Shown: positions 18,283-50,395 of the stretch, piece after piece
Numbering within the stretch: the first letter of the stretch is position 1
How the letters are laid out: each line of letters starts with the position of its first letter
DNA from: Parasporobacterium sp.
Lineage (GTDB): Bacteria; Bacillota; Clostridia; Lachnospirales; Lachnospiraceae
Direction of reading: 5' to 3'
NCBI GenBank assembly: GCA_017431485.1
Contig: JAFRKZ010000087.1
Location: 1 to 57,393, forward strand
DNA length: 57,393 nucleotides
Notes under the pieces: generated by a model
Database searches by the model: none
The model's input: only the letters and a program-made list of their open reading frames with translations
Told to the model about the DNA's origin: nothing
Made by a program: the position numbers and the translations under genes

Positions 18283-18356
<74 letters not shown>

Positions 18357-19197: not shown

Positions 19198-19204
19198 ATA
19201 AATT

Positions 19205-19550: not shown

Positions 19551-19638
19551 CCTTTTCTGATCCTATCAGGAGCTTGATAAGAAGCATCGAAAGAACCGAA
19601 AGCCAGAATAAAGGGCGGCTGACACGGAGGATGTACCC

Positions 19639-22578: not shown

Positions 22579-23067
22579 TTAGTCTTTCAATGCCTGCCGG
22601 TAGGCTTCGTCGATCCGGTCGGCATCTTCGTGCACCACATAAAGGAGAAAATTCCCCTGCAGATCGATCACTGCATTGCGGCAGAGTTCATACTGGGGAG
22701 GTGCATACCCCTCATAGATATTCATCTGGGATTCCAGACGCTTTTCCACGGATGCCACCAGTTCATCCGCCTGTTCCTCGCTTTTGAGTTTCACGAGCAG
22801 AAGCTCCTCCGCATCCATATTGGAGATCGGGGAGTATAAGATCACGCCGTCATAATCCCTTGCATTAAAGCCGTAATGTTTCTTGAACATCCGCTCCTGG
22901 CTCAGCGAGGACCGTTCGTTTTCAAACAGACCGGTGATCTGTGCGGCAACTTCTTCGGCAGAACGGCGGCTGCCGCTGCTGCGCGTCAGATAAACGATGA
23001 TCACGACAAGAAGGGCCAGGACCATCAGTATACTGATTATTCTTAACAGAAACGCTCTTTTAGTCAT
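22579..23067 (-). CDS. DUF4358-like membrane-anchored protein
   Basis: 162 aa. N-terminal TM, then a region resembling DUF4358 (YGFNARDYDGVILYSPISNMDAEELLLVKLKSEE..). It overlaps the upstream gene by 8 nt. Confidence 0.65.
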   Translation of the reverse strand: MTKRAFLLRIISILMVLALLVVIIVYLTRSSGSRRSAEEVAAQITGLFENERSSLSQERMFKKHYGFNARDYDGVILYSPISNMDAEELLLVKLKSEEQADELVASVEKRLESQMNIYEGYAPPQYELCRNAVIDLQGNFLLYVVHEDADRIDEAYRQALKD

Positions 23068-23866
23068 TAAACACCATCGTATCCTTTAAATATTGTTTTA
23101 AGATCCTTTCTGCCAACAGAGGATAGAACGGAGCGTAGAAGTGCGATCCATCCTCTCCGAACAGATCTTCATTTTCCTCCACAAGATCAGACACGTCGAT
23201 CGTATTGTATCCCCGTTCCTCATAGATCTGCATGGATACTTCATCCCAGGTAATGGCTTTCTGTACGAGCCCCGGTATATTATAAAAGTCTTCCACACGT
23301 TCCCTTGGGATCAGGATGGACTGGATATAGATGCGGGCATCCGGAAGATGCTCCTGGATATAATCCACGTATTCCATTTCGATCTCAGCGTATTCCGCCG
23401 GGTCATAACACAGCCAGTCAATATCATTCAGGCCATAAGCGAGTACGATCAGACTGGGATTGGCAGCCCATAATTCCTCGAAATGGTCTTCTATACCGCG
23501 AATAGTCTTCCCGCCTTCTGCCAGGACCCGGCTTGCATCCATGAATCCATAGGAAGCGAAGGCCATTGTTCTGGAGTCTCCCATCATAATGGTCCCGATC
23601 TGGTCCAGGGCAGTCCAGACATAGTCGGGATCCTCCTCGATCTTTTCGTCCAGATCCTCAAAAAAGAGGGACTGTCTGACAGCGTTGACTTCTTTTTCCA
23701 CCGCATTGACATCCAAGGATTCCATGCTCCGGATATATTCCAGGCCTTCCGTGATCTGTGCATCCTGCCGGCCCGGTTTTGCAAGGACCAGGATCAGGAC
23801 AACAATTGCCGCTATGACGGCAAGTGAGAGGAATATGAAGATGTATTTCCGATGGTTGCGGTTCAT
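23060..23866 (-). CDS. SGNH/GDSL hydrolase-family protein, membrane-anchored
   Basis: TM anchor. SGNH blocks MMGDSRT (I), YGLNDI (III) and EDGSHF (V). Confidence 0.8.
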   Translation of the reverse strand: MNRNHRKYIFIFLSLAVIAAIVVLILVLAKPGRQDAQITEGLEYIRSMESLDVNAVEKEVNAVRQSLFFEDLDEKIEEDPDYVWTALDQIGTIMMGDSRTMAFASYGFMDASRVLAEGGKTIRGIEDHFEELWAANPSLIVLAYGLNDIDWLCYDPAEYAEIEMEYVDYIQEHLPDARIYIQSILIPRERVEDFYNIPGLVQKAITWDEVSMQIYEERGYNTIDVSDLVEENEDLFGEDGSHFYAPFYPLLAERILKQYLKDTMVFND

Positions 23867-23869
23867 AGG

Positions 23870-25033
23870 TTATGATTCAGCCGTTAAAGCGCCGGCTATG
23901 GAATTGTCTTCCACAAAGGTATTTACATTGTACAGGAACAGGATATCCGTGATCTCCGAGGTGGTGACCAACTGGTCCAGATCATCGCTGTAATAACGCG
24001 GATCGACGATATAGATCGATCCGAAATGGGGAAGAAGGAACTGGACAAAAGCATTGGCGTAGGAATCCTTGATCAGGAGAAGGTTTTTCTTGTTCGCCGC
24101 CGTTGTCCTGATCCTGATGAGCGGATGATTTCCTCCGAGGAACACTTCATATTGATTGTTTGTATCAAGGGCAGAAGAACTGTACATGGTAGCGGTTTTT
24201 CTGCTTTCACCGACATATTCGACGACATACTGGATATCGCTGTCCGGAACATACAGATCGATCACATCCCGTACGTTTGAAGCGCCGGAAGCAGAAGCGA
24301 GGGTTCCGGAAAAACGGTCGGTTGCTTCGTATTTCGTGTACGATAATACAGGATCTGTGATGCCAAGGGAGGGACACAGGGCTTCAAAAGCATATCTGGC
24401 TCCCAGACTGGTCCAGTGATGATCGCTTTTATAGAATATGTATTCCGTACGATGTGCCATAAGATCCTGCGTCAGATCGACAAAATGAAGGCCGGATCCT
24501 AATGTATCCGAGATCTTGCGGAGGATCTCCTCCTGATCGATGGACGGAGCTCCGGGAGGAAGAAGATGACGAAGGACACAGACTGCATTGGGGATCACCG
24601 TCATAACGATATTCTGATCTCCCGCATGCCGAAGGGCAAAATCCCGGATGGCATCCAGGTTCCTTTCAAAATCTTCCTCTGCCGGTTTCTTGGCCTGTTC
24701 GATCAGGTATCCCTGTTTTCCGAGGTAGACGCCGTTGGATTCCTTTTTGCCCAGCAGTTTATCTGTATTCAGTTTGTAGGTGATCCAGCCGTCCCGCAGA
24801 AAGAACTGGTCGGAGACAAAGCTTTCTGCCTTGGTCATGTATTTGCCGGAGATGATATTTGAAGCAGTCAGAACAGGCGGCTTGGCCAGTACCCGGTTCT
24901 CCCGTTCCGAAAACTGCCGGTTGTGGTCCGCCAGCAGGAAAATGTCTGCCAGGATGATGATCGCAGCAAACAGGACCAGCGTTGTGATCCTGATAAAGCG
25001 GTTTTTTTGTTTTTGCTGCGTTTTTCTGTCCAT
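23870..25033 (-). CDS. DHHW-family protein (AlgJ/AlgX-like acyltransferase partner)
   Basis: Literal YKSDHHWTSLG motif and an N-terminal TM. Start set at Met62 of the track ORF (ATG 25033, AAGGAAGG RBS), 11 nt after the MBOAT stop. Confidence 0.8.
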   Translation of the reverse strand: MDRKTQQKQKNRFIRITTLVLFAAIIILADIFLLADHNRQFSERENRVLAKPPVLTASNIISGKYMTKAESFVSDQFFLRDGWITYKLNTDKLLGKKESNGVYLGKQGYLIEQAKKPAEEDFERNLDAIRDFALRHAGDQNIVMTVIPNAVCVLRHLLPPGAPSIDQEEILRKISDTLGSGLHFVDLTQDLMAHRTEYIFYKSDHHWTSLGARYAFEALCPSLGITDPVLSYTKYEATDRFSGTLASASGASNVRDVIDLYVPDSDIQYVVEYVGESRKTATMYSSSALDTNNQYEVFLGGNHPLIRIRTTAANKKNLLLIKDSYANAFVQFLLPHFGSIYIVDPRYYSDDLDQLVTTSEITDILFLYNVNTFVEDNSIAGALTAES

Positions 25034-25044
25034 AAAGCCTTCCT

Positions 25045-26457
25045 TTAAAACTTGAAATAAAGAAACGGATTGTAGGTCGCGTTTACCAGATATGCCAGGG
25101 ATGTCACAAACAGCAGGACATAAACGGCAGAGGCGACGATCTGGCCCCATCGTTTTCCTGCCTGCGATATCATGCCAAACAGTCTGCGGACCAGCGGAGT
25201 GGAGCAAAGAACGCACAATATCAGCAGGATAAGGTAAGAGGTCAGGTAATACCAGGTTGCGGGATCCGAAAACCCGTTGCCCAGCAGACCGAACAGGGCT
25301 TTGAAATTATCCCAGAGTCCGGGTACGGACGGGGCGGTAAAGATCAGCCATCCGATCACAAAAAAGAAGATCGTATAAATATGCTGGAAAACCCGGGGGG
25401 ATCTCCGGAGGGCTCTTCCCCAGATGTATTTCTCCAGCAGAAGAAGGATCCCGTAATACAGTCCCCAGAGAATATAACACCAGGCGGCTCCGTGCCAGAG
25501 ACCGGTGAGCGCCCAGACGACCATGATATTCCTGATATGGCGAAGGGGATTGACCCGGTTGCCTCCCAGGGGGATATAGACGTATTCCCGGAACCAGGTG
25601 CTCAGGGAGATATGCCATCTGCGCCAGAATTCCGTAATGCTCCGGGAGATATAGGGATGATCGAAGTTCTGTGAGAAGGTAAACCCCAGCATCCGGCCCA
25701 GGCCGATCGCCATGTCAGAGTAGCCTGAGAAATCAAAATAGATCTGGAAGGTGTAGGCGATGATCCCGATCCAAGCCGTAAGGGCAGGCCGCTGTGCGGC
25801 GGGGATGGCAGAAACCGTATCAAAGAGCATGCCGATGTTGTTGGCCAGCAGCACTTTCTTTGCAAGGCCGCGGATAAAAAAGACCGCACCGTCTGCCGCC
25901 TTGTCCAGCGTGATCGTCCTTTTCTTCAGCTGCTGACGGATCTCCTCGTATCGCACAATAGGGCCTGCGATCAGCTGCGGGAACATGGTGATATAGGCGC
26001 CGAAATCGATGATGTTGTACTGAACGTTCACCTTTCCCCAGTAAACATCGATCACATAGGACAGGATCTGGAAAGTATAGAAGGAAATTCCAATGGGAAG
26101 CGGCAGATCCCTGATCGGGATATGGGTCCCTAAAAGAGCATTTAAATTGGTCAGGAAAAAACCGTAGTATTTGAAAAAGCAGAGGATCCCGATGTTGACG
26201 GCGACTGTAAAGACAAAGACGTGCTTTCTGGTTTTGCGGACCCTGCGTGACGTCAGGTCGCCCAGCTGAATGCCTGCAAAATAGTTAAAGACGATACTGA
26301 ACATCATCAGCAGCACATAGACAGGCTCACCCCAGGCATAAAAGACCAGGCTCGCCAGAAGAAGGAGAGCATTCTTAAACCTGAAGGGGAGAATGTAGTA
26401 CAATATTAATGTGACCGGTAAAAAAACGCACAAAAAAAAGGTGCTGCTGAAAATCAT
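25045..26457 (-). CDS. MBOAT-family O-acyltransferase (AlgI/DltB-like)
   Basis: 470 aa, polytopic. Conserved FWRRWHISLSTWFREYVYIPLGGN block with the MBOAT catalytic His. Confidence 0.9.
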   Translation of the reverse strand: MIFSSTFFLCVFLPVTLILYYILPFRFKNALLLLASLVFYAWGEPVYVLLMMFSIVFNYFAGIQLGDLTSRRVRKTRKHVFVFTVAVNIGILCFFKYYGFFLTNLNALLGTHIPIRDLPLPIGISFYTFQILSYVIDVYWGKVNVQYNIIDFGAYITMFPQLIAGPIVRYEEIRQQLKKRTITLDKAADGAVFFIRGLAKKVLLANNIGMLFDTVSAIPAAQRPALTAWIGIIAYTFQIYFDFSGYSDMAIGLGRMLGFTFSQNFDHPYISRSITEFWRRWHISLSTWFREYVYIPLGGNRVNPLRHIRNIMVVWALTGLWHGAAWCYILWGLYYGILLLLEKYIWGRALRRSPRVFQHIYTIFFFVIGWLIFTAPSVPGLWDNFKALFGLLGNGFSDPATWYYLTSYLILLILCVLCSTPLVRRLFGMISQAGKRWGQIVASAVYVLLFVTSLAYLVNATYNPFLYFKF

Positions 26458-35687: not shown

Positions 35688-35716
35688 TTGACCTTTGGGT
35701 TCAAGGATAGTACAAT
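35688..35716 (+). promoter_or_regulatory. promoter TTGACC-17-TACAAT of the envelope operon
   Basis: Hexamers at 35688-35693 and 35711-35716, about 30 nt upstream of ATG 35748. Confidence 0.55.
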
Positions 35717-35747: not shown

Positions 35748-37256
35748 ATGCGTACCGGATCAGGTAAAAGATCTTCATATAACAGAACGACCGGAAGCAG
35801 GACTGCGAGGCTGTATTCCCGCAGGACTGCTAAAAAGATAAATAAAATATATCTGAACGAAGAGGCAAAGATCATTCGGACAGAAGAGTACTATGGTGAA
35901 TCAAGGACAGCAGCCCGCAGTTTCGGTGCCGATGAGTACAACGACTATTACGATGATCTTTCCAGAGACAGAAAGAGCGGAGCAAAAACAAAGATCTCGA
36001 CGATCATTATCACGGCTTCGCTTATTATTGTGGTCCTGGCTCTTGTGATCGCAGGACTGGCCCTCTTAAAGCCAAAGGACAATGTGGTCACGGATCTCGT
36101 AAAAGCTCCGAAGACGGAACCGGAGTCCGTTCCGGCATCTTCCCTGTATGGAGATTCCGCCGCTCCCGAAATCTTTGGCGTGATCCCGATCGTCGTTTAC
36201 GCCGGCAACTCGGTTGCCTATAAAGACGGCGTCTATCTGGAGGATGATAACGATCCTTCCCCGGTCCTGGAGATCGAGAACGAAGGAGTGGATCTTACCA
36301 CTCCCGGTATTTATCCGATCACTTATGTCGCCAGAGACGCGGACGGCAATGTTACCAGAGAGGTGACGACAGTGACGGTTCTTGCCGGCACGAACCTGAT
36401 CAGCCAGGAAGAGATCAATAAACTGGCGGATCTGGTGTTGGAAACGATCATTCCGGATGATACGATCTCCGATGAAATGAAATGCCTGAAAGTTTATGAG
36501 TATCTTCATGCCATCGGATATGTGGACGAGGTCCATTCAGAGGACTGGATGCAGAACGCTTACTGGATGCTGACAAAGAGGGAAGGAGACTGCTTCTGTT
36601 ATTACTCCGCTTCCAGGCTGCTCCTTTCCAGGCTCGGCTATGAAGTGATGGAGGTCCGGAACAACAACAACTATGTGCATTACTGGTGTCTGGTCAGTAT
36701 TGACGGCGGCGCGACCTGGTGGCATTTTGACCCCTGCTGCTGGAGCTGGGGGGAAGATGGGATCCTGTGCCTTGTCAGCGACAAATATCTGTCAGAGTTT
36801 ACCAGAAGACATATTACTTCGGACGGACGGCTGATCCACGCCTGGGATCTGGTCAATTATCCTTCTACACCTGAGGCGGACTTCTGGACAGATGAAGACC
36901 GTGAGGTGATCTATGAAGGCGGCCTGATCGATGTGGAAGCACAGTACGACCCGAATGACGAAAGATGGAACAACGATGGCTGGGAGTCCTATCAGGTACC
37001 GAATTACTGGGAAGCATCTGACTGGACGGAATACGACTACAATTATGATGACACTGCTTATGATCCGGCTGCGTATGAAGAGTCCTATGTCGGGGCTGAA
37101 GATATGGTTTCGGAAGATTATGATGTTCCGGCTGATCCCGGTTCCTATGAAGAAGCGGATCCTGCTCCCGGAGTGATCGAAGAGATCCCATATGAAGAAG
37201 AATATGTGGAACAGGTTTTTGAAGATACCGAAACCGGATTTGAAGGTGACAATTGA
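35748..37256 (+). CDS. membrane-anchored Ig-like (DUF5011-type) + transglutaminase-like cysteine peptidase-fold protein
   Basis: Arg-rich N-terminus plus TM. Ig-like GVDLTTPGIYPITYVARDADGNVTREVTTVTV. Cys/His/Asp contexts EGDCFCY, HYWCLV and WWHFDPC. Acidic, Tyr-rich tail. Confidence 0.75.
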   Translation: MRTGSGKRSSYNRTTGSRTARLYSRRTAKKINKIYLNEEAKIIRTEEYYGESRTAARSFGADEYNDYYDDLSRDRKSGAKTKISTIIITASLIIVVLALVIAGLALLKPKDNVVTDLVKAPKTEPESVPASSLYGDSAAPEIFGVIPIVVYAGNSVAYKDGVYLEDDNDPSPVLEIENEGVDLTTPGIYPITYVARDADGNVTREVTTVTVLAGTNLISQEEINKLADLVLETIIPDDTISDEMKCLKVYEYLHAIGYVDEVHSEDWMQNAYWMLTKREGDCFCYYSASRLLLSRLGYEVMEVRNNNNYVHYWCLVSIDGGATWWHFDPCCWSWGEDGILCLVSDKYLSEFTRRHITSDGRLIHAWDLVNYPSTPEADFWTDEDREVIYEGGLIDVEAQYDPNDERWNNDGWESYQVPNYWEASDWTEYDYNYDDTAYDPAAYEESYVGAEDMVSEDYDVPADPGSYEEADPAPGVIEEIPYEEEYVEQVFEDTETGFEGDN

Positions 37257-38446
37257 GTACGAGTGAGAACGCACAGCTGAATGAAATATACAGACAGAGG
37301 AAACTGTTCCGGAATGACAGAAGACGCACAATGAGATTTATCTCCGCGTTTGCTGTGATGCTGGTTTTGTTAGGCGCTGTGATCGCGGTGACAGGCCTCC
37401 TTTATATTGTTAAGAATTCTCCTGATCATGACCTGATCGTCCTGCGGGACAGAAAACCGCCGGTGGTTTCTGTTCATGACGCGGTTTCCGCAAACGGAAA
37501 GGTCTACAGTATAGAGGAGTTTGCAGACAGTATCAGCGATATTTCAGATGTCCGGATGAGCTATATCAAGGAACCGGATTTTGAAGCGGACGGCATCCAG
37601 GATATCGTCATACGTTTTACAGATGAAGCAGGCAATTATACAGATAAGAACCTGAAACTGGAGGTATATCATGATACCTCGGCACCGGTCATCTATGTGG
37701 ACGATGATATTTATGTTTTCTGGAACGATGCGATCTCTTATAAAAGCTTTGCCGAAGTGGAAGACGATTATGACGAAGATCTGGATCTTGAGATCGATAA
37801 CAGCGAAGTGGATGTGACGAAGATCGGGACCTATCCGGTAATTTACAGTGCGACGGACAGTGTGGGAAACACCACAAGCAAGACCGTCAATATTCATGTC
37901 ATGGAACCGGATTCAGATGAATATTACCTGATGAAGGCCAATGAACTGTGCGATATCATCATCTCTCAGATCACTTATGACGGTATGGACGATCTTCACA
38001 AAGTATGGGCAGTCTACAATTATGTCCGGGAGATCCCTTATGTTCTGACGGATTATACCAGAAATTATATCCGGGAAGGCTATAAGATGCTGAGTGAATA
38101 CCGCGGTGACTGTTACGGAAGCTATGCTTCTGTCAAACTTCTGCTGGACCGTCTGGGGATCATGAATATACCGATCCAGACCGATGAAGCCTATACCAGA
38201 CATTTCTGGAATATGGTCTCATTGGACGGCGGCAATACCTGGTATCATGTAGATGCCACCAACTGGACGGAATGGAGTCAGCGACCGAATATGTGCATGA
38301 TCAGCGATGGCCGGCTGGATGAGATCTCGGCACAGCACGGAGGGACTCATTACCATATCAAGTCTGATTATCCTGCGACCCCGTATAACAGCATGCCGGT
38401 ACCGGAGGATATTTCCGCACAGTACGGTGTGTATGACTGGAGCTGA
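37253..38446 (+). CDS. paralogous membrane-anchored Ig-like + transglutaminase-like protein
   Basis: Same layout as the upstream gene: DVTKIGTYPVIYSATDSVGNTTSKTVNIHV, then RGDCYGSY, HFWNMV and WYHVDAT. The start is uncertain: TTG 37253 overlapping the upstream stop, or ATG 37331. Confidence 0.7.
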   Translation: MSTSENAQLNEIYRQRKLFRNDRRRTMRFISAFAVMLVLLGAVIAVTGLLYIVKNSPDHDLIVLRDRKPPVVSVHDAVSANGKVYSIEEFADSISDISDVRMSYIKEPDFEADGIQDIVIRFTDEAGNYTDKNLKLEVYHDTSAPVIYVDDDIYVFWNDAISYKSFAEVEDDYDEDLDLEIDNSEVDVTKIGTYPVIYSATDSVGNTTSKTVNIHVMEPDSDEYYLMKANELCDIIISQITYDGMDDLHKVWAVYNYVREIPYVLTDYTRNYIREGYKMLSEYRGDCYGSYASVKLLLDRLGIMNIPIQTDEAYTRHFWNMVSLDGGNTWYHVDATNWTEWSQRPNMCMISDGRLDEISAQHGGTHYHIKSDYPATPYNSMPVPEDISAQYGVYDWS

Positions 38447-38484
38447 TCATGTGTTGACGCCTTTAGAAGGCTGGAGGAGCAGGA

Positions 38485-39216
38485 ATGGTAAATGGTAAGA
38501 AAGTACTTGGCGTGATCGGGGGCATGGGTCCCATTGCGACGTCTTTTTTTATGGAACTGGTGATCAAGATGACAGATGCTTCCACGGATCAGGATCATCT
38601 GGACATGATCATTTATAATATCCCGTCCATACCTGACCGAACATCTTACATTCTGGACCATACCAAGAAAAGTCCGCTGCCGGTCATTCTTAATATCGCG
38701 GCAAAGCTGGAAGAGCAGGGAGTAGAATTTCTTGCCATGCCCTGCTGCACAGCCCACTATTTCCAGGAGGAACTGGAACAGTCCCTCCACAAACCCTTTG
38801 TGAATATCATACGGGCAACGGTTCACTATCTGAAGGAACGGGGGATCACAAAGGTCGGCGTCATGGCAACAGACGGCACCATGAATACCGGACTGTTCCG
38901 CAAGGAACTGGAAGAAAACGGCATGCAGATCGTCTGTCCCTCTAAGGAGCGGCAGAAAGACGTTATGCATGTGATCTATCAGAATGTGAAGGCAAACCGT
39001 CCGGTGGAGATGGACCGGTTCCGGGCTGTCGGCGACGAACTGAAAGCCAACGGAGCGGAGGCGATCATCCTGGGATGTACGGAGCTGTCCCTGGTGAAGC
39101 GAGACTATGATATCGGACCGGGATATATCGACGCTATGGAGGTTCTTGCCCAGCAGTCCCTGATCTCATGCGGATCTGTATTGAAAGAAGAATATAAAGA
39201 GCTGATCACAGCTTGA
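38485..39216 (+). CDS. Asp/Glu-racemase-family amino-acid racemase (aspartate-racemase-like)
   Basis: GVIGGMGPIATSFF N-terminus and both catalytic Cys motifs, MPCCTAH and LGCTE. GGAGGAGCAGGA RBS. Confidence 0.85.
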   Translation: MVNGKKVLGVIGGMGPIATSFFMELVIKMTDASTDQDHLDMIIYNIPSIPDRTSYILDHTKKSPLPVILNIAAKLEEQGVEFLAMPCCTAHYFQEELEQSLHKPFVNIIRATVHYLKERGITKVGVMATDGTMNTGLFRKELEENGMQIVCPSKERQKDVMHVIYQNVKANRPVEMDRFRAVGDELKANGAEAIILGCTELSLVKRDYDIGPGYIDAMEVLAQQSLISCGSVLKEEYKELITA

Positions 39217-39233
39217 TCGATGGAGTGATTATC

Positions 39234-40751
39234 ATGCAGTATACAAATATTTTGCAGTATCTGGAAGAAACCGTTCTGAAGGTGCCGGACAAACCGGCAT
39301 TCTGCGCACAGGACAGCACACTGACGTTCCGTCAGACTTATGAGGCGTCCCGGGCAGTCGGTTCTTTTCTGTATCAGAAGGGCTACTATAAAAAACCGGT
39401 CGTTGTCTTTATGAAAAAGACACCGGAAGCGATCGCTGCCTATCTGGGCGTGATCTATGCCGGCTGTTTTTATGTGGCGTTGGATGAAGAGATGCCGAAG
39501 CACAGGATCGAACTGATCATCCAGACCGTGAAGGCAGGTATGGTCATCTGTGATGAGACCACAGGGGAGATGATCCGGGAATACGGCTTTGACGGGGAAG
39601 TCTGTCAGTACAGCCAGATCGTTCAGACAGGGATCGATGAAGAAGCGCTTGAAAAAGTGCGTGATGCCCAGACCGATATAGATCCTATTTACGCGGTCTT
39701 TACTTCAGGTTCCACAGGAGTGCCCAAAGGAGTGCTGGCCTGCCACCGGTCTGTGATCGATTATATTGAAAACCTGTCGGAAGTGCTTCAGTTTGATTCC
39801 GATACGGTATACGGAAACCAGGCGCCGTTCTATTTTGACGCCGCATTGAAGGAGATCGTGCCCACCATGAAATTCGGCGCCACGACTCATATTATCCCGA
39901 AATCCCTGTTCATGTTCCCGATCAAGCTGGTGGAATTCCTGAATGAACATAAGATCAACACCATCTGCTGGGCGGCATCAGCCCTGACGATCGTTTCCTC
40001 TTTCCGGACGTTTGAGAAGATCCGGCCGGAATATATCAAACGTGTTGTATTCGTGGGAGAAGTCTTTCCGATCAAACAGCTGAACATGTGGAAAGAAGTC
40101 CTGCCGGATGCTCTGTATGTCAATCTTTACGGACCGACAGAGACGACAGGGGTATGCTGTTATTATAAAGTGGACCGGGAATTTGCGCTGGACGAGACCC
40201 TTCCGGTAGGAAGACCCTTCCACAATACCTCCATTCTTCTTCTGAATGATGATCTTACACAGACTCCTTTCGGTGAGGTGGGTGAGATCTGCGTAAAGGG
40301 AACCTGCCTGACGCTCGGCTATTACAACAATCCGGAGAAGACCAGGGAAGCGTTTATCCAGAACCCTCTTAACGACATGTATCCGGAGACCATCTACAGG
40401 ACAGGAGATCTGGGAAGGTACAATGAGCGGGGAGAACTGTGTTATGTTTCCCGCAAGGACTATCAGATCAAACACATGGGACACCGTATTGAACTGGGCG
40501 AGATCGAAGTCGTTGTGAATATGCATAAAGGGATCCGGACAAATTGCTGCATATTTGATGACATTAAGAAGAAAATCGTGTTATACTATGTCGGCGATGC
40601 AACGAGGGCGGAAGTGGCGGAATTCACCAAGGAAAAACTTCCCAGATATATGTTCCCGAATGTGATTGTCCAATTGGAGAATATGCCCTATACTGCTAAC
40701 GGAAAGATCGACAGAGTCTCATTGAAAAATAAATATAACGAGGAAAAATAA
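39234..40751 (+). CDS. DltA-like stand-alone amino-acid adenylation enzyme (carrier-protein ligase)
   Basis: A-domain core motifs TSGSTGVPKG, NQAPFYFDAALKE, YGPTETTG, YRTGDLG, QIKHMGHRIELGEIE and NGKIDR. Start set at ATG 39234 (GGAGTG RBS). Confidence 0.85.
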   Translation: MQYTNILQYLEETVLKVPDKPAFCAQDSTLTFRQTYEASRAVGSFLYQKGYYKKPVVVFMKKTPEAIAAYLGVIYAGCFYVALDEEMPKHRIELIIQTVKAGMVICDETTGEMIREYGFDGEVCQYSQIVQTGIDEEALEKVRDAQTDIDPIYAVFTSGSTGVPKGVLACHRSVIDYIENLSEVLQFDSDTVYGNQAPFYFDAALKEIVPTMKFGATTHIIPKSLFMFPIKLVEFLNEHKINTICWAASALTIVSSFRTFEKIRPEYIKRVVFVGEVFPIKQLNMWKEVLPDALYVNLYGPTETTGVCCYYKVDREFALDETLPVGRPFHNTSILLLNDDLTQTPFGEVGEICVKGTCLTLGYYNNPEKTREAFIQNPLNDMYPETIYRTGDLGRYNERGELCYVSRKDYQIKHMGHRIELGEIEVVVNMHKGIRTNCCIFDDIKKKIVLYYVGDATRAEVAEFTKEKLPRYMFPNVIVQLENMPYTANGKIDRVSLKNKYNEEK

Positions 40752-40979
40752 ATGGAACAGTTATTAGAAATTCTTGAAGGATTACATCCGGAAGTGGACT
40801 TCGAACTTGCAGACGACCTGATCGACGGCAAGATCTTTGATTCTTTTGATATCGTTACCCTGGTGGCAGAGATCAACGCAGAATTCGATGTGGCGATCCC
40901 GGCAGAGGAACTGATCCCTGAAAACTTTAATTCTGCTGAAGCGATCTGGGAGCTGATCCAGAGACTGGACGAAGAATAA
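40752..40979 (+). CDS. DltC-like aminoacyl carrier protein
   Basis: 75 aa with the phosphopantetheine Ser in a DltC-like context, KIFDSFDIVTLV. Its ATG follows the upstream TAA directly. Confidence 0.8.
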   Translation: MEQLLEILEGLHPEVDFELADDLIDGKIFDSFDIVTLVAEINAEFDVAIPAEELIPENFNSAEAIWELIQRLDEE

Positions 40980-40982
40980 AGA

Positions 40983-42551
40983 ATGTCCTTTACATCAATT
41001 GATTTTCTTGCATTTTTCGGTATACTGATCATCCTGTACTATGCACTGCCTAAAAAGATACAGTGGATAGTACTTCTTGTTGCCAGTTATACTTTTTATA
41101 CACTTGCAGGCCTGAAATATATAGGCTTTATTCTGTTCACCACCATCACAACCTATCTCGTGACACGGCATATGGACGAGAATCTTCAGAGACAGGATCT
41201 GTATCTGAAGAAACATAAGGCTGAGATGTCCAAGGAAGAGAAAAAGGCATATAAAAAAGAGGTGAAATCCAGGAACCGGCTGTGGTTTGTGATCACGATC
41301 GTGGTGAATTTCGGGATCCTCTTTTTCTGCAAAGCATGTCTGGTGGATCCGCTGCACAGCATGAGCGGATCACCGGTCTTTTCCTTTCTTTCGGTAGGGC
41401 TGCCTTTTGGTATTTCCTTTTATATGTTCCAGTCCATGGGATATGTGATCGATGTATACCGGGGCAAGGCACAGGCGGAACGCAATTTCTTCCGGCTGGC
41501 GCTGTTCGTGTCCTTCTTCCCGCAGCTTGTACAGGGGCCCATCAGTAAATGGGAGCAGCTCAAAGATTCCCTGTTTTCGCCGCATGCATTTGACCGCAGA
41601 CAGGTAGCGTTCGGACTCCAGAGAGTCCTGTGGGGCTTTTTCAAAAAGCTGGTGATCGCAGACCGGATCGCGGTTGCGATCGGAACGCTGAAAGGAACAG
41701 AGTATACCGGCGTTTCCTTCTTCGTGCTGACGGTGTTTTATGCCGTGCAGATCTACGGCGATTTTACCGGTGGTATCGATATTGCGATCGGCGTAGGTGA
41801 GACGCTGGGTGTTAAGATGCCTGAAAACTTCATCCGGCCGTTCTTCTCCAAGAATATCGCGGAATACTGGCGCAGATGGCATATCTCCCTGAATGAATGG
41901 ATGAAGAGCTATATCTTCTATCCGATCACGGTCTCCGGTCCCATGCTGAAGCTGGCGCTGAAGACAAGGGCAAAACTGGGCCGGTTCGGTATGCGGATCC
42001 CGGTTTATATCGGCTCTTTGCTGACCTGGCTGGGAACAGGCGTTTGGCATGGATTCAATTTCCATTTTATCCTGTGGGGACTGATCAACTGTGTGGTGAT
42101 CGTGATCTCAGAAGAACTGAATCCTGCCTATGAAAGGTTTCATGATCGCTTTTCCTGGTCAAACAAAAGGGGCTATAACGTTTTCCAGATCATCCGGATG
42201 TTTGTCCTGATGAACCTGATCAGGGCAACCGACCTGTTCAATGATGTCGGCGATTATTTCCGGCGGATCGGATCCCTTGCATGGCAGTTCAATTTCCATG
42301 TACTGTGGGACGGAACGCTGATGAACCTCGGCCTTACCGCGGCGGATTATATCATCCTGATCTGCGGCATTATCATAATGTTCCTGGTGAGCTTTTTCAG
42401 CAGGGATAACGTGAGTTTTCGGGTGAAGTTCCAGAAGGTTCCGAGAGTACTTCGCTATGTACTGCTTTTCCTTTTGCTGCTGTCCGTGATCCTGTTCGGA
42501 AGTTACGGCATCGGCTATGATGCAAGCAGTTTTATTTACAACCAGTTCTGA
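40983..42551 (+). CDS. MBOAT-family O-acyltransferase (DltB/AlgI-like)
   Basis: 522 aa, polytopic. Conserved YWRRWHISLNEWMKSYIFYP block with the MBOAT His. Confidence 0.9.
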   Translation: MSFTSIDFLAFFGILIILYYALPKKIQWIVLLVASYTFYTLAGLKYIGFILFTTITTYLVTRHMDENLQRQDLYLKKHKAEMSKEEKKAYKKEVKSRNRLWFVITIVVNFGILFFCKACLVDPLHSMSGSPVFSFLSVGLPFGISFYMFQSMGYVIDVYRGKAQAERNFFRLALFVSFFPQLVQGPISKWEQLKDSLFSPHAFDRRQVAFGLQRVLWGFFKKLVIADRIAVAIGTLKGTEYTGVSFFVLTVFYAVQIYGDFTGGIDIAIGVGETLGVKMPENFIRPFFSKNIAEYWRRWHISLNEWMKSYIFYPITVSGPMLKLALKTRAKLGRFGMRIPVYIGSLLTWLGTGVWHGFNFHFILWGLINCVVIVISEELNPAYERFHDRFSWSNKRGYNVFQIIRMFVLMNLIRATDLFNDVGDYFRRIGSLAWQFNFHVLWDGTLMNLGLTAADYIILICGIIIMFLVSFFSRDNVSFRVKFQKVPRVLRYVLLFLLLLSVILFGSYGIGYDASSFIYNQF

Positions 42552-42559
42552 TACATTTT

Positions 42560-43636
42560 ATGAAAAAGAAACTGATCCTCATTATTGTCATAACGGTATT
42601 GGCGGCAGCCGGACTTCTGTTCCTGGTGCAGGGACTTTTAATGCCCAAATTTATGTCAGAGATCCCGGAAGGTGCCATGATCCAGGAGTATTATGAAAAT
42701 GCGGGCGGCAACGATGTGATCTTTATCAGTGACTGCGAAGTGTACGAGAATTTCTCTCCCGTCACGTTGTGGGAAGAGTACGGGATCACATCCTATATCA
42801 GAGGATCTGCCCAGCAGCTGATCTGGCAGTCTTATTACCTGATGGAAGAAACCTTCAAGTATGAAACGCCGGATATCATGGTCTTCAATGTCCTGGAAAT
42901 GAAATACAACACGCCTTCCGATACCGGTGCCTCCAGCCAGCGGGAAGCATATAACCGCATGACCCTGGATGGTATGCGCTGGTCATCCAGCAAATGGAAT
43001 TCCATCTATGCCTCCATGACAAAAGAGGAGAGATCCAAAGACGGCGTATGGAGTTATATTTTCCCGATCCTGCGCTACCATGACCGCTGGTCGGAATTGT
43101 CAGGGGAAGATTTCCGATATCTGTTTACCAGAGATCAGGTGACGGACAACGGATACCTGATGCAGGTCAAGGTCAATCCCGTCGGAGATGAGTATCCGGT
43201 GATCCCGCTTGTGGATTATTCCTTTGGGGATAATGCCTACTATTATCTTGATAAGATGGTCGAACTCTGTGAGGAGCATGGAACACAGCTGGTCCTTGTC
43301 AAGGCTCCGACTCTTTCTCCGATCTGGTATGATCAGTGGGAAGAGCAGATGGAACAGTATGCTCAGGAACACGGGCTGTTGTATTTTAATTTCCTGGAAA
43401 AACAGGATGAGATCGGGATCGACTGGAATACGGATACCTATGACCAGGGTCTGCATCTGAATGTTTACGGCGCCGAAAAGCTCTCCCGTTACTTTGGAAA
43501 GATCCTTTCGGAAGAACTGGGGGTTAAGGATCACAGAGGGGAAGAAGAGACCGCCCGGAAGTGGGAACAAAAATGTGAAACTTATATGAACCGCAAAGAA
43601 AGACTTGAAAAAGAACTGACAAACATAGTAGAATGA
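42560..43636 (+). CDS. membrane-anchored SGNH-like protein (DltD-position partner)
   Basis: N-terminal TM. Block I-like VIFISDCEVYE and block V-like DTYDQGLHLNVYGAEKL. The family assignment is tentative. Confidence 0.6.
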   Translation: MKKKLILIIVITVLAAAGLLFLVQGLLMPKFMSEIPEGAMIQEYYENAGGNDVIFISDCEVYENFSPVTLWEEYGITSYIRGSAQQLIWQSYYLMEETFKYETPDIMVFNVLEMKYNTPSDTGASSQREAYNRMTLDGMRWSSSKWNSIYASMTKEERSKDGVWSYIFPILRYHDRWSELSGEDFRYLFTRDQVTDNGYLMQVKVNPVGDEYPVIPLVDYSFGDNAYYYLDKMVELCEEHGTQLVLVKAPTLSPIWYDQWEEQMEQYAQEHGLLYFNFLEKQDEIGIDWNTDTYDQGLHLNVYGAEKLSRYFGKILSEELGVKDHRGEEETARKWEQKCETYMNRKERLEKELTNIVE

Positions 43637-43691
43637 CCATTGCGGTCTGCGGACCATATAACAGTAATAGATCCTGAAGGAGAGAATTAAT

Positions 43692-44267
43692 ATGAAAAAA
43701 ATGATTTGTTTACTGATCGCAGCGGTCCTGGCAGCAGGAATGCTGACTGCCTGCGATTCAGGAGATAGCAGCGCTAAAAAAGATGACCAGGCGACTACTG
43801 TCGCTGCTGCAGCTGCAGACACGACACCGGCGGCTGATGAGACTGCACAGGCCCAGGATGCACAGACGGATCGATTTACCTTTACGTATAAAGGTACTCC
43901 GATCACCATGAAGGCTGAAGCAGCTCCGATCTGCGAAGCTCTGGGTGACGCAAAGAGCTATACAGAGGAAACAAGCTGCGCATTTGACGGCCTGGATAAG
44001 AATTACACCTTTACCAGCTTTATCATGACGACCTATCCGGATGGCGACAAGGACAGAGTCAATTCCCTGACGCTCCTGGATGATACCGTTTCTACTGCGG
44101 ACAAGATCAGTATCGGAGACTCCAAGGAAAAAGTGGAAGAAGTCTACGGAGCCGACAGTTTTAACGGTGTCAACGCCTATATCCTGACGGAAGGAGATGC
44201 ACAGCTTACCGTGATCATCGACGGCGACAAAGTATCTTCCATCCAGTATACGGCAGTGTTTGAGTAA
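43692..44267 (+). CDS. lipoprotein, function unknown
   Basis: Signal peptide with lipobox LTAC, then an Ala/Thr/Asp-rich linker and a ~130-aa domain. GGAGAG RBS. Confidence 0.7.
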   Translation: MKKMICLLIAAVLAAGMLTACDSGDSSAKKDDQATTVAAAAADTTPAADETAQAQDAQTDRFTFTYKGTPITMKAEAAPICEALGDAKSYTEETSCAFDGLDKNYTFTSFIMTTYPDGDKDRVNSLTLLDDTVSTADKISIGDSKEKVEEVYGADSFNGVNAYILTEGDAQLTVIIDGDKVSSIQYTAVFE

Positions 44268-44293
44268 ACACATTTTTCAATTACGACAAGAAG

Positions 44294-44323
44294 GCCAGCA
44301 TGCAGATGTCATGCTGGCTTTTT
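44294..44323 (+). terminator. rho-independent terminator of the envelope operon
   Basis: GCCAGCATG-loop-CATGCTGGC followed by TTTTT. Confidence 0.85.
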
Positions 44324-44603
44324 CCTTGTTTTCGCAGTGTGCTCAATTTGAGGAGGGTAGACCCTCCTTGTTTTCACGGTGAGTCTAATATGAGGAGGGT
44401 TTACCCTTCTTGTTTTCGCGGTGCGCTCAATTTGAGGAGGGTAGACCCTTCTTGTTTTTGCGGTGTGTTTAATTTGAGAAGGGTGGCCCCTTCTTGTTTT
44501 TACGATGTCCCCGATTTGAGAAGGGTGTCCCCGACTTGTTTTTGCGATGTCCCCATTTTGAGGAGGGTAGACCCTTCTTGTTTTCAAGATGAGATTAATT
44601 TAA
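44318..44603. repeat. tandem array B: 7 units of a 42-nt hairpin repeat, core TTTGAGGAGGGT..ACCCTTCTTGTTTT
   Basis: Unit starts at 44347, 44389, 44431, 44473, 44515, 44557 and 44599, all exactly 42 nt apart. Each unit is an AGGAGGGT/ACCCTCCT-type hairpin plus a T run. Confidence 0.9.
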
Positions 44604-44604
44604 G

Positions 44605-44637
44605 AAGGGTATAGGCTCGGAAAGAGCCTATACCCTT
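44605..44637 (-). terminator. 14-bp hairpin terminator of the ABC-F/PHP/hydrolase operon (also the last repeat unit)
   Basis: AAGGGTATAGGCTC-ggaaa-GAGCCTATACCCTT, 7 nt downstream of the hydrolase stop. Confidence 0.7.
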
Positions 44638-44643: not shown

Positions 44644-45867
44644 TTATAGTCCATCTGTGATATTTGGATCGATCTTAAATCCATCGAAATCATCGAGAGG
44701 ATGAAATTCTTCCTCCGGCGGGGTTTTCTGTGAAGCAGGGGTTGATCCTTCAGAGTCAGAAGAAGCTGAACTTTCTTCGGAACCGGCCCCGGAGATCACT
44801 GCTTCGATGTCGGCAAAGTCGATCATCTCCACCTTCGGATGGGCATCCTTGTCGATATATTCTTCCAGGTTCAGTTTTTCATCCCGGACCATTGGTCTGT
44901 CGATCTCCGGATCCACAAAATCCTCCAGGACAATGTGTTTCGGAGTGGCGGCGGCTTTTTCCGGAACGTCCGGGATCGCTGCCAGGCAGGATTCAACCTG
45001 TTCAAGGAGATCCTGCCAGATCTTTTCCCTGCAGAAATCCTGAAACAGTTCATGGCGCTGTCCCGGATAAATGATGTATCCCACATCTGTATATCCATTA
45101 TCAGAAAAGAGGTGGACTGTCTTCAGAACACCGTTTTTGCCTGCAGCACAGGAATCTTCTTCTCCCCAGAACAGACGGATGGGAAGCCCAGTGTGTTTTT
45201 TGATCCAGCTTCCTTTTGTATAGGTGCGGTTCATGAGATCCAGGATGGTCTTGAAACCGTTTATGGTATAGATATATCCGCATTTCGGGTTGATCTCATA
45301 TTTCAGGACACTGTCCCGGTCAGAAGACAGCCAGGCGAATTCGGATCCTTCCCTGGCAAATGGCCTGTAGTAAGATCCCATGATCAGATAATTGAGCAGG
45401 GAAGAACGATGATATTCCCCGCGCATAGCCATCAGCACCATCGTCAGCAGGTCAGCAGCAGGACGAAGCGGTTTGTCCGCCGGCATGCCGCAGAGAAACA
45501 GTCCGTCAATATAGTTGTCGTATTTTTTGATATAGACCGTGGCAAGAAGCGCTCCGATCCCATGTCCGAACAAAAAGCAGGGAATATGGGGAAAATGATC
45601 TTTGATATATTGCGTGATATCGTGAACGTCGCCAACCAGTCTGGAAACAGCGTTATCCCCGAAAAAACCAAGTTCTGTTTCCCGGGCAGTATTGATCCCG
45701 TGGCCTCTCAGGTCGCTGGTAACGACTGCGAAACCATGTTCCGCAAGGAAATGAGCAAATTCACGGTATCTTCCCTGATATTCGGCCATCCCGTGAAGGA
45801 TATGAAAGACTGCCCTGACTTCGCCGTCAGGCATATAAATGATCGCGTTTTTCGTTAATTCAGACAT
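44644..45867 (-). CDS. alpha/beta-hydrolase-fold protein (lysophospholipase/MGL-like) with Gly at the nucleophile position and an acidic C-terminal extension
   Basis: HGMAEYQGRY..SDLRGHG entry motifs of the Hydrolase_4 type. The elbow reads GHGIG instead of GHSxG. About 120 aa of acidic tail. Confidence 0.75.
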   Translation of the reverse strand: MSELTKNAIIYMPDGEVRAVFHILHGMAEYQGRYREFAHFLAEHGFAVVTSDLRGHGINTARETELGFFGDNAVSRLVGDVHDITQYIKDHFPHIPCFLFGHGIGALLATVYIKKYDNYIDGLFLCGMPADKPLRPAADLLTMVLMAMRGEYHRSSLLNYLIMGSYYRPFAREGSEFAWLSSDRDSVLKYEINPKCGYIYTINGFKTILDLMNRTYTKGSWIKKHTGLPIRLFWGEEDSCAAGKNGVLKTVHLFSDNGYTDVGYIIYPGQRHELFQDFCREKIWQDLLEQVESCLAAIPDVPEKAAATPKHIVLEDFVDPEIDRPMVRDEKLNLEEYIDKDAHPKVEMIDFADIEAVISGAGSEESSASSDSEGSTPASQKTPPEEEFHPLDDFDGFKIDPNITDGL

Positions 45868-49231: not shown

Positions 49232-50395
49232 ATGCCTGAAAAATATCAGTATTACAGATTGTGGGCGGATGTGGATCTGAATGCCATCCGCTCTAATATT
49301 TTGAAAGTACAGAAAAATCTCTCGGAACATGTCAGGACCTGCGCTGTCGTCAAAGCAGACGGATACGGGCACGGGGCCGTACAGGTCGCGGAAGCAGTAT
49401 CGGATCTGGTGGATTTTTATGCTGTGGCGACGATCGAGGAAGGACTGGAGCTGAGGGAACATCAGATCTGGAAGCCTGTTCTCGTCCTGGGATATGTCCA
49501 TCCTTCCATGTATGAGTCAGCCATTATGAACGGGATCCGCCTGACGGTCTATGATCTTTCGATCGCCAAAGGTCTGTCGGCTGCTCATGAACGGCTTATT
49601 TCCCAGGCAGGAAGCGAGCAGGTGAAGGATGCGCCAATCCATATCAAAGTGGATACCGGCATGAGCAGGATCGGCTTTTTCCCGTCCAGGGAATCTGTAC
49701 AGGTCCTGAAAGAGATCGCCTCCCTGCCCGGGATCCGGATGGAAGGGATCTTTACGCATTTTGCCAATGCAGATGACGAAACGACGGAACGGGCACTTGA
49801 TCAGCTGGATGTGTTCAGACGGTTCCTGTCTGAACTGGAGGCGGAGGGACTTCATTTCCCGGTCAGACACTGTGCGAACAGCGCTGCCGCAACCTGTCTT
49901 CAGGAGGCGCAGCTGGACATGGTGCGGCTTGGGATCTCCATGTACGGTCTTTATCCTTCCTGCTATGTCAGGCAGATCCCGCTGGAGCCTGCGATGTCCC
50001 TCAGAAGCCATGTGATCATGGTGAAAAAGATCCCGGCAGGAACTCCTGTCGGATACGGGAGCACCTGGACGGCTCCGGAAGAAAGCGTGATCGCGACCAT
50101 ACCGACCGGCTATGCGGACGGTTATAACAGAGGCTTGTCCAATAAAGGCTATGTACTGATAGGAGGAGCCAAATATCCTGTCGTCGGAAGAGTCTGCATG
50201 GACCAGATGATGGTTGATGTGACGAACCCCCTGGAAGGAAAGGGCGGGGAAGTCCGCGAAGGCGATGAGGTCATCCTGGTGGGACGATCCGGGGATCTGT
50301 ACATCACAGCGGAGGAGATCTCTGAACTTGCAGGCTCCTTTAATTATGAGTTTGTCTGCGGTATTTCGAAGCGGGTACCGCGTATCTATCACTGA
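49232..50395 (+). CDS. alr: alanine racemase
   Basis: 387 aa. PLP-Lys context AVVKADGYGHG and the C-terminal catalytic Tyr region. It starts 15 nt after rex. Confidence 0.92.
   Translation: MPEKYQYYRLWADVDLNAIRSNILKVQKNLSEHVRTCAVVKADGYGHGAVQVAEAVSDLVDFYAVATIEEGLELREHQIWKPVLVLGYVHPSMYESAIMNGIRLTVYDLSIAKGLSAAHERLISQAGSEQVKDAPIHIKVDTGMSRIGFFPSRESVQVLKEIASLPGIRMEGIFTHFANADDETTERALDQLDVFRRFLSELEAEGLHFPVRHCANSAAATCLQEAQLDMVRLGISMYGLYPSCYVRQIPLEPAMSLRSHVIMVKKIPAGTPVGYGSTWTAPEESVIATIPTGYADGYNRGLSNKGYVLIGGAKYPVVGRVCMDQMMVDVTNPLEGKGGEVREGDEVILVGRSGDLYITAEEISELAGSFNYEFVCGISKRVPRIYH

Follow-up and report, generated by a model that had tools for sequence, protein, structure and literature searches.

A Dlt-like carrier-protein/MBOAT gene cassette with its own aspartate-racemase-type gene, conserved in Clostridia and predicted to handle an acidic D-amino acid

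We analyzed a stretch of 57,393 nucleotides (hereafter the window) that corresponds to contig JAFRKZ010000087.1, positions 1 to 57,393 of the forward strand, of the assembly GCA_017431485.1 from Parasporobacterium sp. (Lachnospiraceae), and focused on a gene cassette that resembles the Dlt system for D-alanylation of teichoic acids and that carries, in addition, a gene for an amino acid racemase. An initial annotation of the window, made from its sequence alone, had described six co-oriented genes with intergenic gaps of 0 to 55 nt, running from the racemase to a lipoprotein, and all six open reading frames were present where it had placed them. The features of the locus, including two further genes that we assign to the same unit, are the following.

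35688-35716, plus strand: promoter-like site, TTGACC and TACAAT spaced by 17 nt, lying after recJ and before the unit's first gene; a consensus match only (10/12).
35748-37256, plus strand: membrane-anchored protein with Ig-like and transglutaminase-like domains, paralogue 1, 502 aa (Pfam).
37253-38446, plus strand: membrane-anchored protein with Ig-like and transglutaminase-like domains, paralogue 2, 397 aa (Pfam, AlphaFold, alignment).
38485-39216, plus strand: two-Cys racemase independent of pyridoxal phosphate, aspartate-racemase subfamily, 243 aa (Pfam, NCBIfam, PDB match).
39234-40751, plus strand: stand-alone amino acid adenylation enzyme of the nonribosomal peptide synthetase (NRPS) type, 505 aa (Pfam, NCBIfam, specificity code).
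40752-40979, plus strand: acidic carrier protein, 75 aa, with predicted phosphopantetheine attachment at Ser31 in FDSFD (Pfam).
40983-42551, plus strand: MBOAT protein, AlgI/PatA-like, 522 aa (Pfam, alignment).
42531-42548, plus strand: hexapeptide FIYNQF, the FxYxxF acyl-shuttle motif with Tyr519, at the MBOAT protein's C-terminal end (motif search).
42560-43636, plus strand: signal-anchored SGNH-fold protein, 358 aa (AlphaFold and Foldseek).
43692-44267, plus strand: lipoprotein, 191 aa, with lipobox LTAC and Cys21 (translation).
44289-44323, plus strand: terminator-like hairpin of 14 pairs with a T-rich tail, at the end of the unit (hairpin search).

From the racemase to the lipoprotein the genes are separated by 17, 0, 3, 8 and 55 nt, with the ATG of the carrier protein gene beginning at the very base that follows the adenylation gene's stop codon. 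The motifs on which the initial annotation had relied (GGMGPIAT, MPCCTAH, LGCTE and FDSFD) were all read in the translations, and its family assignments were borne out, by Pfam for the racemase, the adenylation enzyme, the carrier protein and the MBOAT protein, at the level of the predicted fold for the SGNH-like protein, and by the lipobox LTAC for the lipoprotein. The adenylation enzyme, for which 506 aa had been given, counts 505 aa when read from its ATG, with GGAG placed 9 nt upstream; an in-frame TTG at 39213 would yield 512 aa. The closing terminator-like structure was also found, its hairpin comprising 14 base pairs and its tail being rich in T. The pair of transglutaminase-like genes, left out of the six-gene unit, ends 38 nt 5' of the racemase gene and no terminator lies between them. 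Because of this 38-nt junction without a terminator, the promoter-like site upstream and the conservation of a transglutaminase-like neighbour described below, the operon most likely comprises eight genes (35748-44267), from the first transglutaminase-like gene to the lipoprotein; thus, the six genes are real, and the unit predicted from the sequence is larger. The GC content of the cassette is that of the window, and a search near the operon for a riboswitch or other RNA regulator gave none. An ordinary alanine racemase gene (alr) is encoded elsewhere, as had been noted, at 49232-50395, and its product is a true alanine racemase equivalog (NCBIfam; 363 bits vs a cut-off of 168).

We compared 86 related loci, counting the adjacency of each gene among the loci with room for the corresponding neighbour. 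The order transglutaminase-like protein, racemase, adenylation enzyme, carrier protein, MBOAT, SGNH-like protein and lipoprotein recurs across these loci, which belong to different families (Lachnospiraceae, Oscillospiraceae and other Clostridia) and have differing flanks. Of 85 loci, 73 have the racemase gene next to that of the adenylation enzyme and 4 more have it elsewhere in the locus, and a transglutaminase-like gene lies directly before the racemase or the adenylation gene in 75 of 78. The carrier protein gene is adjacent in 76/82 loci, the MBOAT gene in 69/71, the SGNH-like gene in 59/64 and the lipoprotein gene in 55/61. Because the same order is kept in 86 loci from different families and with different flanks, the comparison argues that the gene arrangement is not due to chance, and the proposal that the racemase is a genuine, conserved part of the operon stands.

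Relatives of the adenylation enzyme number in the thousands at about 65% identity, labelled merely as "amino acid adenylation domain-containing protein", and no specific NCBIfam model was found for any protein of the cassette. In a scan with one genome per species, at least 581 genomes had a relative of this enzyme. Among the matches listed, carriers include Agathobacter, Roseburia, Cuneatibacter sp. NSJ-177 (locus L015), Acetatifactor and Lachnobacterium, together with Faecousia and other Oscillospiraceae, Mageeibacillus and Erysipelotrichaceae-like metagenome-assembled genomes. Of 80 loci on metagenome contigs, which came from the human gut, the rumen and bioreactors, 78 had the same cassette; that scan was aimed at the relatives with a Ser-type SGNH protein described below, and it returned mostly the cassette with a Cys-type protein, plus two Ser-type loci.

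The adenylation enzyme matches the AMP-binding family (Pfam, E 2.8e-63) and passes the NRPS-type model TIGR01733 (328.8 bits vs a cut-off of 317.4), whereas it stays below the DltA equivalogs TIGR01734 (268.2 vs 559.85 bits) and PRK04813 (287.8 vs 476 bits). In the comparison with PDB sequences, the A domains of LgrA scored 351 bits, GrsA 229 and DltA 174-183. The specificity code was read from the alignment in GrsA numbering, with a GrsA sequence identical to that of 1AMU and a Bacillus subtilis DltA sequence that differs from 3E7W in three residues, none of them at specificity-code positions. Only positions 235, 236, 239, 278 and 517 were used, those from 299 to 331 shifting with the alignment settings. 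The residues at these five positions are D/A/K/C/K; D235, A236, K239 and C278 are invariant in 86/86 loci, and all five are unchanged in 85/86 (L023 has Leu at 517). The code of B. subtilis DltA is DLMTMCTAVK, with D, L, M, T and K at the five positions and Cys at 301.

In the structure of DltA with D-Ala-AMP, the methyl group of D-Ala occupies a cavity formed by Leu197, Met200 and Cys268, and Cys268 selects the enantiomer (PMC8972799). These residues (Bacillus cereus numbering) correspond to code positions 236, 239 and 301, where the enzyme of the window has Ala, Lys and Val, position 301 being Ala, Ser or Gly in its homologues. Because Ala, Lys and a small residue replace Leu, Met and Cys, the pocket is predicted to be larger than that of DltA and to have a positive charge where a beta-substituent would sit. 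As Asp235 and Lys517, the partners of the alpha-amino group and the carboxylate, are both kept, the code points to an alpha-amino acid as substrate. Among NRPS codes, the combination of Lys239 and Ala236 is a hallmark of Glu (DAKDLGVVDK, vs DAQDLGVVDK for Gln).

The racemase is a member of the Asp_Glu_race family (E 3e-45; PF01177, 155 bits vs a cut-off of 31) and of the aspartate-racemase subfamily TIGR00035 (225.9 bits vs 93.1), with 1JFL, the aspartate racemase of P. horikoshii, as its best PDB match (3e-51). In 74 homologues, conservation reaches at least 95% for the predicted catalytic residues Cys87 and Cys198, and likewise for Arg52 and Lys169, which align with Arg48 and Lys164 of the P. 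horikoshii enzyme. Glutamate racemase models gave 31 bits, far below the score against the aspartate-racemase model. The protein also exceeds the cut-off of the cysteate racemase (CuyB) equivalog NF052483 (220.4 vs 190 bits), and owing to this score automatic pipelines may name it "cysteate racemase". CuyB belongs to the aspartate-racemase family, acts on an analogue of Asp, and is described in a genomic context with the D-cysteate sulfo-lyase CuyA, a transporter and RidA (PMC11193023). No CuyA-like, sulfonate, transporter or RidA genes were found near the racemase.

Because a Lys239 pocket coincides with a racemase closest to aspartate racemase, the cargo of the cassette is most likely an acidic D-amino acid, as judged from these sequence features. 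In peptidoglycan-containing bacteria D-Glu is supplied by MurI, and for this reason we prefer D-Asp over D-Glu; the data as such do not separate D-Asp from D-Glu and D-cysteate. The claim of the initial annotation that the system would handle an acidic D-amino acid other than D-Ala thus agrees with the pocket residues and with the AspR-like racemase, and Asp, Glu and cysteate are indistinguishable within it; the ester linkage that it also assumed is one that we likewise only infer.

The carrier protein matches PF00550 (PP-binding; 23.2 bits vs a cut-off of 20.8, E 8e-5). Its residues D30, S31, F32 and D33 are at least 95% conserved (71 homologues for D30 and S31), and phosphopantetheinylation is predicted. 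Its pI is 4.05, in a range of 4.05-4.29, and it missed both DltC equivalogs (PRK05087, 30.5 vs 68 bits; TIGR01688, 20.8 vs 52.35 bits). The MBOAT protein matches PF03062 (58.6 bits vs a cut-off of 27, E 8.5e-16) and misses the DltB equivalog TIGR04091 (139.2 vs 375 bits). Its His356 aligns with the catalytic His of the WHG motif of DltB and its His300 with that of RWHxSL, both at least 95% conserved, and its sequence is closer to an AlgI-like MBOAT protein encoded in the same window at 25045-26457 (30% identity, 167 bits) than to DltB (79 bits). Residues 59 to 100 form a basic loop of 42 aa with 13 Lys or Arg residues (median 12 in homologues), longer than the matching region of the AlgI-like protein. 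Within the loop, conservation is at least 95% for Lys79, Lys88, Lys91 and Lys95; this loop may be the docking site for the acidic carrier protein.

At its C-terminus, the MBOAT protein ends in FIYNQF, and an FIYxxF sequence is found at this place in 69/69 homologues. The tyrosine of FxYxxF is the acyl shuttle of DltX and of PatA, and in MBOAT/SGNH pathways other than Dlt, which are fed by acetyl-CoA and have no carrier protein, the motif is fused to the MBOAT protein (PMC12148441). Because the genes for the adenylation enzyme and the carrier protein directly precede an MBOAT gene whose product ends in FxYxxF, the system of the window is, by its sequence, a hybrid in which a carrier-fed MBOAT protein has the shuttle motif fused to it. 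A six-frame search for F.Y..F ends, made for a separate DltX microprotein, gave only the two MBOAT C-termini. The AlgI-like protein mentioned above (470 aa, ending in NPFLYFKF, which contains FxYxxF) belongs to a second MBOAT system on the minus strand (22579-26457), together with a DHHW/AlgX-like SGNH protein (23870-25216), a GDSL-like protein (23060-23866) and a DUF4358 protein (22579-23067). This second, conventional system has neither adenylation enzyme nor carrier protein, and presumably carries out polymer O-acylation of the acetyl-CoA type; it is a helpful comparator from within the window.

The 358-aa protein encoded downstream of the MBOAT gene was modelled by AlphaFold with a predicted local distance difference test (pLDDT) score of 85, and Foldseek matched the model to GDSL/SGNH acylhydrolases, TesA, DltD and PatB with probabilities of 0.9-1.0 and target-normalised TM scores of 0.5-0.74. 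The matches to DltD at the level of fold were 6pfx, 7dxm and 3bma (E 0.01-0.04). The Pfam match to GDSL_2 was weak (20.2 bits vs a cut-off of 32.9), no match to DltD (PF04914) was found by sequence in Pfam or NCBIfam, and an attempt to link the protein by sequence to DltD or PatB, with the profile of its family run against PDB sequences, gave only noise. In the alignment, block I of the SGNH motifs corresponds to Cys59 (S/G-D-C-E, after strand 1), which is Cys in 60/60 homologues from the cassette, and the other blocks to Gly82 (60/60), Asn110 (58/60) and His299 (60/60), with Asp295 also conserved. The family has 7411 members at E <=1e-3 among 1.84 billion representatives. In the best 150 of the 7411, the column of Cys59 has Cys in the 51 closest members and Ser (GSS, GNS or GDS) in 90 more distant ones, and because of this distribution the alignment argues that Cys has replaced the nucleophilic Ser of the family.

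Two loci have a sister cassette of the Ser type (L087, 1458-5902; L099, 3492-8029), in which an adenylation enzyme, a carrier protein, an MBOAT protein ending in DFIYMQF and an SGNH protein with GSST are encoded without racemase, transglutaminase-like or lipoprotein genes. The code of its adenylation enzyme is DAIRIGIGVK, with Ile239 and Arg278. It shares with the cassette of the window the same four-gene core and its order, and the identities to the proteins of the window are 61-63% for the carrier protein, 46% for the adenylation enzyme, 37-38% for MBOAT and 34-36% for SGNH. Thus, a nucleophilic Cys, a pocket with Lys239, a racemase and the accessory proteins outside the cytoplasm appear to travel together, in a contrast that comprises two loci only. 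The Ser-type cassette is another uncharacterised carrier-fed MBOAT system; in L099, a gene for a 733-aa membrane protein overlaps the start of the adenylation gene.

For the transglutaminase-like proteins, paralogue 1 gave matches to Bact_surface_Ig-like (1.4e-5) and, weakly, to Transglut_core (1e-3); the PF01841 scores of the two proteins were 22.5 and 19.8 bits vs a cut-off of 23, and homologues pass in precomputed Pfam assignments. In paralogue 2, an N-terminal transmembrane helix is followed by two domains of the Rib/Ig-like type and, at the C-terminal end, by a papain/transglutaminase-like core, and its residues D286, C287, H317, H332 and D334 are invariant in an alignment that includes paralogue 1. 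Its AlphaFold model (pLDDT 88) was matched by Foldseek to Rib and InlK domains, the search being dominated by Ig/Rib domains and uninformative on the catalytic core or the substrate. The lipoprotein has a conserved C-terminal domain, and no usable match to Pfam was found for it at E values up to 10.

The conserved order of the genes, the catalytic residues and a pocket unlike that of DltA are features of the sequences themselves, and taken together they make it probable, in our judgement, that the cassette encodes a carrier-protein-dependent pathway of the MBOAT/SGNH type by which an acidic D-amino acid, D-aspartate being the most probable, is attached to a component of the envelope outside the cytoplasm. 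The first steps would follow from the chemistry of the domains: the AspR-type racemase would convert the L- into the D-enantiomer in the cytoplasm, and the adenylation enzyme would activate its alpha-carboxyl group as aminoacyl-AMP and then load it as a thioester onto the phosphopantetheine arm of the carrier protein. The order of the later transfers is modelled on Dlt and PatAB. The loaded carrier protein would dock on the cytoplasmic face of the MBOAT protein, possibly at the conserved basic loop, and His356 would move the aminoacyl group to Tyr519 of the protein's own C-terminal FIYNQF, forming an ester at the outer face; a separate DltX would be unnecessary, the motif being fused. The membrane-anchored SGNH-fold protein would then accept the group in thioester linkage at Cys59 and pass it to the acceptor. 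Outside the cell, the transglutaminase-like proteins, with their intact Cys-His-Asp residues, and the lipoprotein might recognise, trim or process the acceptor or the modification. The identity of the amino acid, that of the acceptor, the roles of these accessory proteins and the esterified envelope polymer itself are all what we infer by extension.

The initial annotation had expected such a modification to change the surface charge in the opposite sense to D-alanylation, which does not follow. Because the alpha-carboxyl would be the activated group, and the amine and the side-chain carboxylate would stay free, an alpha-linked acidic residue would be zwitterionic, with a net charge of about 0 and no charge reversal: it would lack the +1 of D-Ala, yet add no negative charge.

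Several observations weigh against this proposal or against parts of it. Around 10-15% of the related loci keep the DAKC code without a racemase in reach (L009, L016, L030, L057, L058, L064, L065, L079, L095, L096, L103, L106, L114 and L141), and L009, L016 and L030 lack a carrier gene as well; because of these loci, the racemase is not strictly obligatory in cis. The clues to the substrate disagree in part, as the racemase is of the Asp type and the adenylation code is most like that of Glu, and the residues read at code positions 299-331 change with the placement of gaps in the alignment. For a role of Arg48 and Lys164 of the P. horikoshii enzyme in binding the beta-carboxylate, the literature searched gave no confirmation. 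The SGNH assignment rests on a model and on weak Foldseek E values (6e-4 to 5e-2), the profile of the family finds no solved SGNH protein among PDB sequences, and the acid residue is spaced as DxxxH (Asp295...His299) in place of the canonical DxxH. The three loci without carrier gene show a reduced cassette (7689-13835 in L009; also L016 and L030) made up of transglutaminase-like, adenylation, MBOAT, SGNH and lipoprotein genes, with a gap of 9 nt between the adenylation and MBOAT genes and housekeeping genes as flanks.

A different cargo on the same machinery is possible, if rather unlikely: D-glutamate, D-cysteate or cysteine sulfinate, or some other D-amino acid with a polar side chain. The code of the window shares D/A/K/aliphatic/small/aliphatic/K with the Glu code DAKDLGVVDK, and the loci without racemase would be most easily explained by a D-form already at hand, for instance the D-Glu made by MurI. 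For D-Glu, however, the dedicated racemase adjacent in 73/85 loci would be largely redundant with MurI, and the 31 bits of the racemase against glutamate racemase models speak against it too. In the case of D-cysteate, the racemase does pass the CuyB equivalog (220 bits vs 190), but neither cuyA nor sulfonate genes were found nearby.

An amide-forming system seems unlikely to us. Here, the thioester at Cys59 would aminoacylate an extracellular amine, such as the side chain of Lys, Orn or diaminopimelate in a peptidoglycan stem peptide, or that of an amino sugar, and the transglutaminase-like enzyme would trim, edit or cross-link the product. The Cys nucleophile is invariant in the clade of the cassette (60/60; 51 Cys vs 90 Ser among the representatives) and goes with the racemase, transglutaminase-like and lipoprotein genes that the Ser-type loci L087 and L099 lack, and enzymes working through thioesters (sortases, L,D-transpeptidases, transglutaminases) typically acylate amines; a Cys nucleophile would nonetheless suit O-acylation equally well. 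In the model, the transglutaminase-like core is carried on two Ig-like stalk domains that would reach off the membrane. D-Asp is a known residue of peptidoglycan cross-bridges, but the known D-Asp bridges are beta-linked and are made by a cytoplasmic ligase of the ATP-grasp type (PMC13631041), whereas the adenylation enzyme would activate the alpha-carboxyl. If amides were formed, wall peptides would be built or remodelled outside the cell with neither ATP nor tRNA at the site of ligation.

We consider it highly unlikely that the cassette serves something other than envelope decoration, with the adenylation enzyme, the carrier protein and the MBOAT protein producing a small molecule, either secreted or located in the membrane, for instance an aminoacyl lipid or something akin to an NRPS product. 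The adenylation enzyme is of the NRPS type, passing TIGR01733, and genome-mining tools would call it an NRPS-like fragment; moreover, MBOAT proteins acylate lipids too. Against this, no condensation, thioesterase or reductase domains were found in Pfam or NCBIfam searches, 4 of the 8 operon products are predicted to be anchored outside the membrane, and the MBOAT protein has the shuttle Tyr motif that hands the acyl group to an extracytoplasmic SGNH partner (PMC12148441).

Finally, ordinary D-alanylation of teichoic acids by divergent Dlt proteins, with the racemase as a bystander, can be dismissed as extremely improbable and was rejected on the equivalog scores and the pocket residues: the overall logic of adenylation enzyme, carrier, MBOAT and SGNH-fold protein is the same, the top full-length NCBIfam matches are DltA for the adenylation enzyme, DltB for MBOAT and AmcB followed by DltC for the carrier, and DltD is among the fold matches of the 358-aa protein, but the equivalogs are missed widely (DltA 268/560, DltB 139/375, DltC 30/68, and no sequence match for DltD), none of the three residues that shape the D-Ala pocket is kept, Lys taking the place of one, the racemase gene neighbours the adenylation gene in 73/85 loci from different families, and the MBOAT protein is nearer to an AlgI-like one than to DltB. 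The Dlt-like character given to these proteins by the initial annotation therefore applies to the type of route; DltA, DltB, DltC and DltD orthologues they are not, since the equivalogs are missed, the MBOAT protein is AlgI/PatA-like and Cys stands for Ser.

Among known systems, Dlt (DltX-DltA-DltB-DltC-DltD, which D-alanylates both lipoteichoic and wall teichoic acids of Bacillota) shares with the route predicted for the cassette a stand-alone adenylation enzyme that loads a D-amino acid onto a small dedicated carrier, an MBOAT protein that has the catalytic His and transfers the aminoacyl group through the membrane with an FxYxxF tyrosine shuttle, and a membrane-anchored SGNH-fold protein outside the cell. 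It differs in that none of the cassette proteins reaches a Dlt equivalog cut-off, that the adenylation enzyme has Ala, Lys and a small residue where DltA has Leu, Met and Cys at the D-Ala methyl, that the shuttle motif is on the MBOAT protein whereas in Dlt it is on the DltX microprotein, that the nucleophile is Cys and not Ser, and that racemase, transglutaminase-like and lipoprotein genes are added. With the O-acetylation systems PatA/PatB (acting on peptidoglycan), AlgI/AlgJ/AlgX (acting on alginate) and the Firmicutes MBOAT/DHHW pairs, the cassette has in common two extra C-terminal helices of the MBOAT protein, the fused FxYxxF and an SGNH-fold partner; unlike it, those systems use acetyl-CoA without adenylation enzyme or carrier (PMC12148441), whereas the cassette has both, plus the basic loop of the MBOAT protein. 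The racemase RacD and the D-aspartate ligase (Aslfm/AslA) of Enterococcus faecium and Lactococcus offer a parallel in which an aspartate racemase of the same family feeds D-Asp into the wall (PMC13631041), but there an ATP-grasp ligase acts through the beta-carboxyl on the cytoplasmic UDP-MurNAc-pentapeptide, with neither carrier nor MBOAT protein.

A DltA-like enzyme and a carrier also aminoacylate an envelope component in the AlmEFG system of Vibrio cholerae, which adds glycine to lipid A, and in the dra system of Bordetella, both of them Dlt-like and from outside the Firmicutes, and AlmE illustrates that amino acids other than D-Ala can be used. AlmG is a lipid A acyltransferase of the cytoplasmic face, unlike the MBOAT/SGNH pair. 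To our knowledge, AlmEFG and dra have no racemase, fused shuttle motif or Cys-type SGNH protein.

Neither a racemase-linked or non-D-Ala Dlt-like pathway nor ester-linked D-Asp or D-Glu on teichoic acids was found in the literature searched, which covered few subscription journals and in which the terms "D-aspartylation" and "D-glutamylation" have zero occurrences. Within the literature covered, this agrees with the earlier statement that no characterised example was known. A review of microbial D-Asp (October 2026) deals with cross-bridges, sensing, catabolism and metabolites, and contains no such route (PMC13631041). The combination of a carrier-fed MBOAT protein with a fused shuttle motif is likewise not described in the published work found, and the cassette would be a widespread variant of MBOAT/SGNH envelope acylation, uncharacterised in that literature.

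D-alanylation by Dlt is the textbook example of surface tuning in Gram-positive bacteria and a drug target, and, according to the literature searched, the only carrier-protein-fed bacterial MBOAT/SGNH pathway that has been worked out. The cassette suggests that its logic has been re-used for another D-amino acid, probably an acidic one, in hundreds of species that include dominant gut and rumen Clostridia such as Agathobacter, Roseburia and Faecousia. If this is true, major commensals would have a new surface modification, with a bearing on resistance to antimicrobial peptides, on phage and immune recognition and on the origin of D-amino acids in the gut; the cassette would also be the first natural hybrid between a Dlt-type (carrier-fed) and a PatA-type (fused shuttle) MBOAT system, and would give studies of acyl-shuttle chemistry an SGNH transferase in which Cys occurs naturally.

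Elsewhere in the window, the region 14725-19554 holds a cluster of seven tRNA genes, of which the first is at 14725-14798 and the other six are at 18059-18634, together with the gene for RNase P RNA at 19205-19554; these tRNA and RNase P RNA genes indicate a core chromosomal context. Between the lipoprotein gene and a convergent gene for an alpha/beta-hydrolase (44644-45867, minus strand) there is a tandem array of a 42-nt unit (44325-44611; 6.4 copies, about 79% identity), and some of its units hold a terminator-like hairpin followed by a run of T, as in TGAGGAGGGTAGACCCTTCTTG TTTTT.

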